Shown here: positions 3,001-22,578 of the stretch, piece after piece
Layout: each line of letters begins with the position of its first letter
How positions within the stretch are numbered: position 1 is the first letter of the stretch
DNA from: Balanoglossus misakiensis
Lineage: Eukaryota > Animalia > Hemichordata
Length of the DNA: 64,000 bases
Assembly: GCA_040954595.2 (NCBI GenBank)
Contig: CM082595.2
Coordinates: forward strand, 7,484,317 to 7,548,316
Direction: 5' to 3'
Made by a program: the position numbers and the translations under genes
Notes under the pieces: generated by a model
Told to the model about the DNA's origin: nothing
Databases searched by the model: none
Seen by the model: the letters and a program-made list of their open reading frames with translations, nothing else

Positions 3001-4790
3001 TCAACCTGTTGTGAATGCAATCAAAATGTGACAATCATCTTCTGGTATCTTCCATGAAGGCCTATGGTGGAGGCTATGCTGTGATGGGTTCCAAACATCT
3101 TGGTGGAGATATCAACTATGCATGGCCCACAGCAGAAGTTGCTGTGATGGGCGCCAAGGGTGCCGTCAAAATTATCTTCAGAGGACAGAAAGCTGAAGAA
3201 GCCGAAAGTGAATACATTGATAAATTTGCAAATCCATTCTCTGCTGCTGTAAGAGGTAAGATTGTACAAACATGTACTTAGACAATAACTACATATAAAT
3301 CTATAATTTCTAAAGTATAAACAATTATAACTGGAATAGTGAAAGCTCAACTGTTTTCTGTGCTATGATTGGTCGAATCATTGTCACATGAGGTGCATCG
3401 ACATTTTTGCAATACACATTATTTAGAGAATAATGAACGCCCCAAAGACCCATAATGGACGAAAGCACACATTGTGCGTCATAATATACGAGGCGGAGCC
3501 GAGTATATTATGGAGCACAATGTGTGCTTGAGTCCATTATGGGTCTTTGGGGCGTTCATTATTCTCATTATTTTATAGTTTTGTCAATGCCAGTGAATTT
3601 GCAGACTTCAAAAAGTATAGGTGCGAACAATTGAGACTCCGACACAGAGATCGAGAACGGAGCAATGGCGTACGCGTAAACAAAAGGTCACCTGATCTTG
3701 GTGTATCAGTGTACTGTACATTTCTAGTATCATATTCAAACATCAGGAAATAAATAATAAAGGTTTATTAACGCATGTGAAAAGTCATTTAAGGGTTCTG
3801 CTGAAATATATCTGAAAAAGTTCGATTTTTGTGTAATCTTGGGGAGGACTCGGGGAATATTTGAATTCGTTTGCGTTCTCAGGAAAGTTCACGTATACGG
3901 GCGCTCGGAAGGTTGCAATACATAAACAAACTCGCCCTTGATCGACCCTTCGTACCGCGTAGACAACATGACAGTGACACTTGCGGCATATTTTTTTTTT
4001 ACGGATACATGTAGCTTCGTTGACATGACTGCTTGGTACATGGTACACGGTATGTATGGTGAACGAATGTCAAATCCAGCATCATCGAGAGGTTTGCTTT
4101 ACGTGCGTGAGTGAGCCATGTTGACTGTGCGTGATTCAAGAGCAGACGACATGTACTGCAGCCGTAGGAAGACAAAATAAACAAAACGCCAGTCGAGGAC
4201 AGATTTGGAAATTAATAAATATCGCCGTATTTATTCTGTGTATGTTTGCATTTCTTTTTTAGCCCTCTAAATGTTCGCATTGTTTGAAATCCTCCGTTAT
4301 TCAGTCGGAAATTGTACACGTCCACTGGTTCTTGGGCGCGTCACGCGTCCATCGAATAACACGATACATTATCAGTAATAATGTATAGCTATGACGTCAC
4401 AAAATTCACTGGCATTGATAAAGCTATAATATAATGGTTAATAATCTTCAGAACTATAATTGCCTGTGTGAGGAACAGTTGTTACCTCAAAGTTATCTGT
4501 ATTGTATTGTTAGCAAGACTTACTGTAACATAATGAGATGTTGTTTATGTGCATGACGTCATCCATAATGTGCAGTACACTTAGTGTATAAAGTGTGTTC
4601 TCTCCGCCATCACTGAGTAGATTGAATATCACGCTTACAAGGACTTTTTTTGGCATTTCCATTTTCAGGATATGTGGACGACATCATCGAACCACAAACC
4701 ACCAGGATGAGACTGTGCCGTGACCTGGATCTGTTGGCCACTAAGAAAATACAAATTCCTTGGAAGAAGCATGGAAATATCCCATTGTAA
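44..4790 (+). CDS. PCCB: PCCB-like acyl-CoA carboxylase beta subunit, copy 1 (5' part, exons 1-4, lies upstream of the window)
   Basis: GT-AG exons 44-104, 424-473, 639-680, 831-897, 1241-1361, 1576-1657, 1835-1958, 2116-2223, 2673-2773, 3060-3255, 4669-4790 splice in frame. They give [32 protein letters not shown]...[11 protein letters not shown]...WKKHGNIPL*, which are carboxyltransferase/PCCB hallmarks. Confidence 0.92.
2498..2632 (+). mobile_element. 5' fragment of a HINE/DINE-1-like (Helentron-associated) element in PCCB intron 12 (also at ~12486 and ~21296)
   Basis: TTAG(A/G)GTTTCGAGACC...GGTCTCGAAACCCT short inverted repeat followed by a TTATT/TTC simple run, the usual HINE 5' layout. 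Present in all three copies. Confidence 0.4.
3423..4434. mobile_element. 1012-bp non-autonomous insertion with a terminal hairpin and asymmetric inverted repeats, no TSD (copy 1 intron 14 only)
   Basis: Empty site CACATTAT|TGGTTAAT in copies 2 and 3. Palindrome at 3426-3566. 28-bp inverted repeat 3573-3600 vs 4402-4429 (26/28 match). Confidence 0.85.
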
Positions 4791-4927
4791 AAAAATTCAT
4801 CTGAATTCCCAGAGAATACTGTAAATGTTCCTGCTTGAAAAGCTGCTCACCCCTATGTTACTGGACAACCATGAGATATAGCACATTATTATACATCTGG
4901 CACTGAGAACAATAGAATTTAGCATGC

Positions 4928-19800: not shown

Positions 19801-22578
19801 TAACTGACAATCATTTTATATGCATGTGCATAATTTTGTATGTACAAACATTAGGTCAGTTGAAAATTTTTTGTAACCAGAGTCTCTGGTTTTTGACATT
19901 CACGTAAGACGATCGTCGCCCTTTAATGTACACATTTATTCTCTTCCTCAATTTGAAATTGTTGGTGACAACACCTGAGTTTGTTCTGAGTGATAGACTG
20001 ACGAGTGGTGATGTGATATTGACTGAATTACAGGTGTTGCTCATTGCGCCTTCGAGAATGACGTCCAAGCTCTGTTACAACTGAGGAAGTTCATCAATTT
20101 TCTGCCATCATCCAATCAAGATCCATCACCTGTCAGAGTCTGTGAAGATCCTCGGTATGTTGTCTCACTGAATTTAGCCTTCCACATCCCCCCAACCCCT
20201 CCCACTTCTATCCTCTGTTTCCAAAGCAAAAAGAGGCTGCATCACCATATTAACTGTAATCTGCAACACTAAGACTTTCATTCAAGACCTAGCTACCATG
20301 CTGCTAAAACGATCCACATGATCGATGCTTACAGAAGTAAATAATTAATTGTTTTCTTCAATTTTTAGGGACCGTATGGTACCAGCTCTAGACACACTAG
20401 TACCACATGCATCCAACAAACCCTATGATATGAAAGAAGTCATCCAGGCTGTAAGTAGAACTCTCTCTCTCCATTCTCCAAACATCAAACTGCATTTTAT
20501 GAGTTTGATATTGAAGAGATATGAGTCATAGACCCTAGAGTCTACAGTTGTATGTTGAAAATGACAAAAATGTTGCACCACAAAATATGGCATTCCAAGG
20601 GTTTATTTAGTTGTGGATATACTTGTTTATTTCAGATTGTAGATGATAAGGACTTCTTTGAAGTCATGCCAGCCTACGCTAAGAACATCATCATTGGTTT
20701 TGGAAGATTAAATGGCAGAAGTGTGGGAGTGGTTGCAAATCAACCCAAAGTGGCATCAGGTAAAAAAACATGGCAGTTAGTTTAAGAAAAATCATCATTT
20801 TCTTAACTTGCTGTACAATTTGGATGTTGAACCCGAAATAACAGATGACACATAAAAATACTTCTAAAGTTCAGCTACTGGAGAATTTATATCTTGTATC
20901 TCATTTTTGTCATCACAGGTGGTTTGGATATCAATGCATCAGTGAAAGGAGCTCGCTTTGTTCGTTTCTGTGATGCCTTCAATATTCCTATCATCACATT
21001 TGTGGATGTTCCAGGATTCTCGCCAGGTAAATTCATGAGAATATCTTCACCGATTTATTCAACTGTTGTTCAGATCTGTGTTTGACCTATTGTTTTTCAT
21101 TACCTAACACATCCTGTGCAAGTATAACACAGTGTGACAATTGTTTTATTTAATTTCAATCAGTTTGTGCCAGCATAAATTTTAGGCCATTGTCCGGACA
21201 ATACATTGTCTTCTTCCTGTTCTCTTTTGTGCTATTGAAATGTTGTACTTATAATCTCTGACTATAATTTGTTTCCAACATGTTGTACATTGTCATTAGG
21301 GTTTCGAGACCAGAGGGGTCTCGAAACCCTCTTGAAATCGTGTTGTTTTTTATTATTATTCTTCCCACTCTTAAAAACAGCTGCTATTCGAAGACCGTTG
21401 CACCCAATGACTTGAAATTTGGCTCATAGGTAAAACTCAAAGCAAGTAATTTTGTATTCTTTGCAACCAGGAACCCACCAGGAATATGGAGGCATTATTC
21501 GACATGGTGCCAAGTTACTTTATGCCTATTCTGAAGCGACCGTTCCCAGGATTACAGTCATCACCAGAAAGGTCCGTTTTTCTTTTATTTTGTGTTCAGT
21601 TTGAACATTCCAGAAGTTCTAAAGGGTCATTCCATGCATGACCCCTTTGTGACCTTTACATCCTGGCATTTTCATTTGCATGAGTCGCCATTTTAATACC
21701 AAAGTCAATCCCTATTCAGCTTGTGCATTTAATTTTTACTGAAAATTGTCTTATAAAAAAGAATTTGTTTTCTGTTCTAAAACCTCTATGTTTGCCTACA
21801 ATCAACCTGTTGTGAATGCAATCAAAATGTGACAATCATCTTCTGGTATCTTCCATGAAGGCCTATGGTGGAGGCTATGCTGTGATGGGTTCCAAACATC
21901 TTGGTGGAGATATCAACTATGCATGGCCCACAGCAGAAGTTGCTGTGATGGGCGCCAAGGGTGCCGTCAAAATTATCTTCAGAGGACAGAAAGCTGAAGA
22001 AGCCGAAAGTGAATACATTGATAAATTTGCAAATCCATTCTCTGCTGCTGTAAGAGGTAAGATTGTACAAACATGTACTTAGACAATAACTACATATAAA
22101 TCTATAATTTCTAAAGTATAAACAATTATAACTGGAATAGTGAAAGCTCAACTGTTTTCTGTGCTATGATTGGTCGAATCATTGTCACATGAGGTGCATC
22201 GACATTTTTGCAATACACATTATTGGTTAATAATCTTCAGAACTATAATTGCCTGTGTGAGGAACAGTTGTTACCTCAAAGTTATCTTATTGTATTGTTA
22301 GCAAGACTTACTGTAACATAATGAGATGTTGTTTATGTGCATGACGTCATCCATAATGTGCAGTACACTTAGTGTATAAAGTGTGTTCTCTCCGACATCA
22401 CTGAGTAGATTGAATATCACGCTTACAAGGACTTTTTTTGGCATTTCCATTTTCAGGATATGTGGACGACATCATCGAACCACAAACCACCAGGATGAGA
22501 CTGTGCCGTGACCTGGATCTGTTGGCCACCAAGAAAATGCAAATTCCTTGGAAGAAGCATGGAAATATCCCATTGTAA
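16860..22578 (+). CDS. PCCB: PCCB-like acyl-CoA carboxylase beta subunit, copy 3 (complete, 15 coding exons, 535 aa)
   Basis: Exons 16860-17039, 18129-18242, 18353-18421, 18551-18721, 18904-18964, 19272-19321, 19487-19528, 19624-19690, 20034-20154, 20369-20450, 20636-20759, 20919-21026, 21471-21571, 21861-22056, 22457-22578 have the same lengths as copy 2 and an open frame. Exon 4 ends in the canonical [10 protein letters not shown]. Confidence 0.92.

Follow-up and report, generated by a model that had tools for sequence, protein, structure and literature searches.

Organization of the tandem array

The DNA analyzed in this study (the window) comprises 64,000 nucleotides of the hemichordate Balanoglossus misakiensis (GenBank assembly GCA_040954595.2, contig CM082595.2, positions 7,484,317 to 7,548,316 of the forward strand). 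Positions 1..25268, plus strand, are occupied by a tandem array of three head-to-tail copies of PCCB, the gene for the propionyl-CoA carboxylase (PCC) beta subunit. The units measure 8.9-10 kb and their homology stops at 25268. On the other side the array is left open by the window start, which interrupts copy 1: exons 5-15 of this copy are at 44..4790, and the preceding four exons (1-4) fall upstream of the window. Copies 2 (7995..13749) and 3 (16860..22578), on the same strand, consist of 15 exons with GT-AG introns and contain complete open reading frames of 535 aa. All three copies are intact, without a single premature stop, frameshift or lost splice site, and a poly(A) signal was located 137 bases past the stop codon in each of them. 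In addition, copy 2 has a basic N-terminal presequence.

The array units were 96-98% identical in self-comparison, introns included, and therefore the three copies must be considered one evolutionary observation and not three. Over exons 5-15 the proteins of copies 1 and 2 are the same; copies 2 and 3 differ in 18 codons, 8 of them inside a nine-codon patch that closes exon 4. The locus was present in three sequencing runs of one sample (X1, X2 and X3, the last listed as 'DNA?'), and in X1 and X2 the head-to-tail junction was bridged by a read contig, so that the array has read support. The depth of contigs of the derived (array) type was 6.1-8.8 fold that of canonical-type contigs in eight pairs; although contig depth is not a measure of copy number, this suggests that the array copies outnumber those in the window.

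Exon 14 encodes GGGYAVMGS in the three copies (3060..3255, 13031..13226 and 21861..22056, plus strand). Six-frame translation placed GGGYAVM at 3066, 13037 and 21867 and recovered the three other deviating motifs in each copy; GFSPG followed by GTHQE was likewise present in all of them. The claim of an earlier sequence-only reading that no copy retains the specificity Asp of PCCB was thus borne out, Ala being encoded at that site in every exon 14. In copy 2 this exon carries G435 (13043-45), A437 (13049-51, the D422 site of bacterial PccB), G440 and G445. Copy 2 therefore has both pocket changes, G177 and A437, plus G435; copy 3 has G435 and A437 but the canonical F177, together with A161G and T232I of its own.

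With respect to the introns, copy 3 shows a 55-bp deletion in intron 7 just ahead of the exon-8 acceptor (19594-19623), and its exon-4 acceptor is AAG rather than CAG (18548-18550). The exon-14 acceptor is AAG in all copies (13028-13030 in copy 2). Copies 2 and 3 contain in their first intron (8451-8989 and 17312-17851) a 126-bp tandem repeat of 3.7 units that has many palindromic CAGCTG sites and is flanked by an inverted segment. Only copy 1 has a 1-kb insertion in intron 14 (3424-4431), in which a hairpin with 69-bp arms (3426-3566) precedes an element whose inverted ends measure 45 bp (3566-4436); it likely represents non-autonomous DNA transposons.

Descent of the copies and rarity of the motif

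Carboxyl_trans (PF01039) scores exceeded the cut-off in exons 4 and 14. The best exon-14 matches came from the PCCB proteins of two acorn worms, Glandiceps and Ptychodera, both with GGAYDVMSS, and whole-protein identity was 84% to Ptychodera flava XP_070538136.1 and 79% to Glandiceps talaboti XP_077987376.1. A phylogeny, one of the checks proposed by the sequence-only reading, was built from 36 proteins by a quick maximum-likelihood (ML) run, the careful tree search being incomplete: copies 2 and 3 grouped with Ptychodera and Glandiceps within acorn-worm PCCB (SH-aLRT 95), distant from the bacterial proteins that share the motif, which formed a separate clade. In this tree the branch of the copies was 0.18, vs. 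0.05 and 0.11 for the sisters. The copies thus belong by descent to the animal PCCB family. Since their closest relatives are acorn worms and they nest among them in the tree, they were not transferred from bacteria; the intron positions, which match those of the canonical transcript described below, also led us to reject horizontal transfer. They are not members of the actinobacterial clades of MccB and AccD4, and their resemblance to these is convergence.

GGAYDVM was found in 255 of the 258 matches with a readable motif when four protein searches were pooled, and GGGY in none; nor did GGGY occur in the 126 readable sequences among 150 cluster representatives. The motif of the array is thus not attributable to chance. 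Three of the searches listed the best 120 matches each, from about 8000 scored candidates each. No second animal with the derived motif appeared among these listed matches, or among the 150 representatives. An apparent eukaryote with Ala at the Asp site proved to be an alignment artefact.

A separate canonical-type gene in the same organism

In X1 and X2, exon 14 was represented by a major, window-like contig plus a minor contig (depth 38.9 of 323.9 and 19.5 of 190.5, respectively) with five listed differences, including those yielding Ser440 and Arg445. Another minor contig, about 10% different from the array, spanned introns 7-8. X3 contained one spliced, canonical-type contig of 1702 bases with the differences of the minor exon-14 contig, and five of its GT-AG joints coincide with introns 9-13 of copy 2. 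In this contig GGSKTH and GFVDD stand in place of the GGYKTH and GYVDD of the array, and Phe416 and Ala417 are encoded. No derived-type contig was found in X3, and given that contigs show presence only, this carries no inference on the expression of the derived copies.

The read comparison lists no differences within 30 letters of piece ends, where codons 435 and 437 fall, and 4 of the 14 exon-14 differences of the canonical-type contig are hidden, which is enough for Ala435, Asp437 and Pro491. We infer that this gene has GGAYDVMSS, the Asp codon itself not being displayed.

It is therefore shown that a second, canonical-type PCCB exists beside the derived array. The canonical gene that the sequence-only reading proposed to seek was recovered both as minor DNA contigs (X1, X2) and as the spliced contig (X3), with its Asp deduced as above. 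Given this separate gene in the same organism, and the GGAYDVMSS of Ptychodera and Glandiceps, the array is distinct from the housekeeping PCCB, as had been proposed, and GGGYAVM is not the lineage-wide state of a sole PCCB. As regards the other conserved segments said to deviate, the motifs are present in all three copies, but some apparent deviations, those of exons 9-11, are found in the canonical transcript as well and are features of the species rather than derived ones.

The copy-2 patch and the gate residue

The patch that closes exon 4 of copy 2 (9833..9859, plus strand) reads IGSYGEVGR, with the Gly177 codon at 9854-9856; the corresponding end in copy 3 (18695..18721, plus strand) is of canonical type, LAGYADIFQ, and keeps the Phe. 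The copy-3 end is either ancestral or back-converted from the canonical gene. Gly177 aligns with Phe160 of PccB and Gly161 of MccB. At this site, here called the gate, Phe was found in 295 of 296 PCC-type matches, the exception being a 182-aa fragment. The major exon-4 contigs match the patch (9231-10601 in X1 and 9746-10144 in X2), and consequently the patch is real and the majority state. Gly was thus found in copy 2 and in the major contigs and Phe in copy 3; the site of copy 1 is outside the window.

Between the patch and copy 3 there are 11 base differences in nine codons, 10.5 of them non-synonymous and 0.5 synonymous. After window correction, this excess reaches significance only at a neutral divergence of ≤0.15 (p 0.0007-0.025). 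A foreign insertion as the origin of the patch was rejected, since it agrees with the canonical-type copy 3 in 15 of 26 bases and at most third positions. The sequence-only reading had singled out the patch as noteworthy; its case is stronger than was then known, since the patch contributes Phe to Gly, the second of the known determinants.

Resemblance to bacterial medium- and long-chain enzymes

Dedicated medium- and long-chain acyl-CoA carboxylases have been described from actinobacteria, where they serve stambomycin extender units and mycolic acids.

Ray et al. (PMC5187497) ascribe hexanoyl-CoA binding by MccB to Ala at the PccB D422 site and to Gly161, at a position where every beta subunit acting on chains of four or fewer carbons has a conserved Phe. 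In AccD4, long acyl chains are held in a tunnel (PMC13012033; bioRxiv 2026.02.06.704326). A Phe/Gly swap at a nearby, non-identical site of the N-domain switches MCC vs. GCC specificity (PMC4673880).

According to the PDB sequences, the gate segment reads SIAYYTELGVRN in MccB and WYAELGRRH in Mycobacterium smegmatis AccD4, and both proteins have GGGYAVMGS. Copy 2, MccB and AccD4 thus share the gate Gly, Ala at the D422 site and GGGYAVMGS, which supports the earlier proposal of a possible convergence on bacterial extender-unit or long-chain carboxyltransferases. The MccB pocket residues Y157, Y187 and L191 are kept in the array copies. When the oxyanion-hole backbones were compared (G182/G183 and G419/A420), the glycines G199, G200 and G434 were found to be kept and A435 to be replaced by Gly, as in MccB and AccD4. 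A scan of bacterial genomes with the exon-14 motif gave 120 loci, the 80 listed being all actinobacterial. The gate was readable in the 79 full-length proteins, the other 41 being too short, and was Phe in none of them, being Gly in 28, Val in 19, Ser in 16, Cys in 11 and Ala in 5. In these bacteria the loss of the gate Phe accompanies the C-domain motif.

A clade of Streptomyces carboxyltransferases (L006, L013 and 17 similar loci) has YAELVRRN, GYLSG and Val at the gate; its members are candidate medium-chain acyl-CoA carboxylases, apparently uncharacterized. The Amycolatopsis and Actinopolyspora members (L004 and L074) stand directly after an acyl carrier protein-like LGLDSL motif. Among deposited structures, human PCCB 8zv5/8zv6 has Tyr at the Asp440 site and the bacterial beta subunit 9j0c carries GGGYGVMGSKHL; no paper was found for either deposition.

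Possible selection and gene conversion

No difference from the canonical-type spliced contig was seen in the 327 bases of exons 9-11 (11232..11949, plus strand), against 27 in the 409 bases of exons 12-14 (p=1e-7), exons 9-11 being likely a gene-conversion tract. In exon 4, the canonical contig shows only five base differences up to 9849, as many as are explained by the patch. This pattern is as expected when selection keeps functional differences while gene conversion homogenizes paralogues, as reported for the R and S paralogues of Leptodactylus ATP1A1, whose functional sites were kept different and the remainder homogenized (bioRxiv 2020.08.04.234435).

The pN/pS of exons 12-14 relative to the canonical transcript was 0.25-0.53, a range set by ten hidden differences, which indicates that constraint persists. 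Within the two segments that form the active site in MccB, 19 of 167 conserved sites were changed, compared with 10 of the 189 located elsewhere (p=0.051, or p=0.017 when exons 9-11 are set aside). In total, 21-29 of 356 conserved sites were changed, and the probability that both named sites are among them by chance is 0.003-0.006, residue identity not being demanded.

Proposed function and alternative explanations

In attention to the above, we consider that the array probably encodes a convergent medium- or long-chain acyl-CoA carboxyltransferase that works like MccB and AccD4. A duplicate of the animal's own PCCB, whose canonical-type copy persists alongside, would have evolved towards acyl-CoAs longer than propionyl-CoA, with alkylmalonyl-CoA as the predicted product. 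The derived subunit would be imported into mitochondria and receive carboxybiotin from the ordinary PCCA alpha subunit, and the two changes, situated on subunits that face each other in the dimer, would open a hydrophobic acyl pocket. Selection would hold the pocket sites apart while gene conversion evens out the remainder, and amplification would lift dosage. The copy-2 type would accept medium or longer chains; copy 3, with its Phe, would resemble the D422A mutant of PccB, widened to butyryl-CoA only. An alkyl-branched lipid, a polyketide or a catabolic intermediate may lie downstream. More tentatively, and with somewhat less than even expectation, we propose that an animal re-invented the bacterial enzyme from its own housekeeping PCCB, through convergence in the two active-site halves, amplified it several-fold and protected it from conversion for the supply of alkylmalonyl-CoA to branched lipids or polyketides of acorn worms. 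In this regard, the hemichordate Saccoglossus has a PKS/FAS-like (polyketide synthase/fatty acid synthase) gene with a methylmalonate-type motif (PMC7280274).

Several observations weigh against this function. The sequence-only reading took the Asp site to set acyl selectivity, and PccB D422 mutants do become promiscuous for C2-C4 (PMC5187497, PMC7835884); however, D427I of Thermobifida shifted specificity slightly and lowered butyryl-CoA activity (PMC7835884), and human D440 makes no substrate contact in cryo-EM models whose acyl group is unresolved (bioRxiv 2024.04.30.591959). The Asp site alone is thus a weak predictor of specificity. The 79 bacterial proteins were selected by the motif and belong to a few related actinobacterial clades, so their gates constitute a pattern and not an independent test. 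MccB I396 and F399 correspond to A410 and L413 in the array and are unmatched, the first of these states occurring in 30 of the 79 proteins and the second in 28; many of the shared states (E175, R178, H219, G440 and G445) are also present in the short-chain PccB. Additionally, L220Q, I222L, A/S244Y, C362G, L395S and P491S occur in none of the 79 proteins and have almost no match in PCC, and could impair the enzyme. The replacement excess of the patch loses its significance at a neutral divergence of 0.20 (p 0.24), and copy 3 does not have the gate Gly, so the copies are not equivalent. Finally, animal FAS and PKS are cytosolic, and the presequence implies a product formed in mitochondria, apart from them.

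Two other explanations are unlikely, and about equally so. The copies may be decaying duplicates that lost the propionyl-CoA function and drift, amplified passively by unequal crossing-over and matching MccB partly by chance. Their long branch (0.18 vs. 0.05 and 0.11 in the sisters), L395S and C362G at near-invariant sites that match no known enzyme, and the A161G, T232I and intron-7 deletion near an acceptor in copy 3 are in line with this; the absence of stops, frameshifts and lost splice sites, the pN/pS below 1 in exons 12-14, the concentration of replacements in the active-site segments and the presence of the MccB residue at both named determinants, one of them requiring two base changes, speak against it. 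In the other explanation, the enzyme would be functional but merely broadened among short chains (acetyl- to butyryl-CoA), like the C2-C4 promiscuous D422 mutants of PccB, and copy 3 has that very combination of a kept Phe and a lost Asp; in the majority type, however, the Phe is gone that Ray et al. found in every enzyme acting on chains of C4 or less. As a variant of this explanation, the enzyme might run in reverse as a decarboxylase in hypoxic mitochondria of a burrower. Reverse PCC flux occurs in mitochondria of anaerobic invertebrates, and the retained presequence fits the explanation, but the reverse reaction requires no change in the acyl pocket.

It is very improbable that the product is a non-catalytic or regulatory subunit that joins the canonical beta subunit in mixed hexamers, either modulating it or creating hybrid active sites. 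The active sites are at the dimer interface (PMC5187497), mycobacterial AccD4 and AccD5 form a mixed hexamer, and exons 9-11 are identical to the canonical gene; the oxyanion glycines and both pocket tyrosines are nevertheless kept, nothing is specific for loss of catalysis, and mixed assembly is equally compatible with a medium- or long-chain carboxyltransferase. The remaining explanations, namely a lineage-wide state of the sole PCCB, an assembly artefact or an actinobacterial transfer, are largely refuted and have only a minimal probability. Near-identical tandem copies can arise as assembly errors, and the canonical Asp codon, close to a piece end, is not displayed. Against this, contigs bridge the array junction, a second gene has Ser440, Arg445, Ala417, Phe416, GGSKTH, GFVDD and four hidden exon-14 differences, and both the tree and the introns place the copies with acorn worms and the canonical transcript.

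If the proposed function is correct, the array would provide the first description from an animal of an enzyme dedicated to forming alkylmalonyl-CoA, and the predominant additional version of the gene would likely make building blocks not known from animals. It would also predict undiscovered alkyl-branched metabolites in acorn worms. The array would illustrate molecular convergence between domains of life, and it is a candidate for selection that counteracts gene conversion. Being a young paralogue with about 20 conserved-site differences from its parent, it offers a natural experiment on whether Phe-to-Gly and Asp-to-Ala suffice for a longer substrate, with a small set of accompanying changes available for dissection. 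We found no paper on hemichordate PCC or on a duplicated invertebrate PCCB with butyryl- or ethylmalonyl activity, in a search that covered mainly literature free of subscription.

Neighboring genes

Downstream of the array, the window contains TRIM-NHL, death effector domain and amino-acid permease genes, and no PKS gene. A long single-exon frame with B-box, Filamin and NHL domains (TRIM-NHL) occupies 27077-29047 on the minus strand. A death effector domain exon is located at 32869-33309, also on the minus strand, with uncharacterized frames downstream of it at 31017-31499 and 29683-30282. Exons of a cationic amino-acid transporter (SLC7-like permease) extend over 35630-47194 on the plus strand.

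Comparison with known systems

The array shares with animal mitochondrial PCCB (Ptychodera, Glandiceps, human 7YBU) the fold family PF01039 and the presequence, and its introns are placed as in the canonical transcript of the same organism. It differs in about 21 derived changes at sites conserved at ≥90%, including D437A, A435G and, in copy 2, F177G, and in having several copies where animal PCCB has one. Like the Leptodactylus ATP1A1 duplicates, the copies diverge from the canonical gene at presumed functional sites and are homogenized elsewhere; selection and function were measured across species in Leptodactylus, whereas the array comes from one individual and its case is deduced.

AccD4 (PDB 9T97; PMC13012033) is identical to the array in 12 residues at the C-domain motif, has ELGRR where copy 2 has EVGRR, shares the gate Gly and likewise coexists with a short-chain paralogue. 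It is far more diverged, has Trp at position 172 and a Gly/Phe helix that lines a C16-C26 tunnel, which was not seen in the array, and requires AccE5 and Pks13, neither of which was seen for the array.

The medium-chain acyl-CoA carboxylase beta subunit MccB, SamR0483 of Streptomyces ambofaciens (PDB 5INF/5INI; PMC5187497), differs from the array in its origin, the latter being an animal gene with introns, a presequence and tandem amplification. The array has A410 and L413 for Ile396 and Phe399 and Ser for Tyr at 172, and has no PKS gene in its window. MccB and copy 2 nevertheless both have GGGYAVMGS, with Ala in place of D422 and Gly in place of Phe160 of PccB, and agree in Ile 170, Glu 175 and Tyr157/Tyr187/Leu191. 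MccB has been shown to be a dedicated, PccB-derived beta subunit that uses the housekeeping alpha subunit, and by analogy the array product may work in the same manner.

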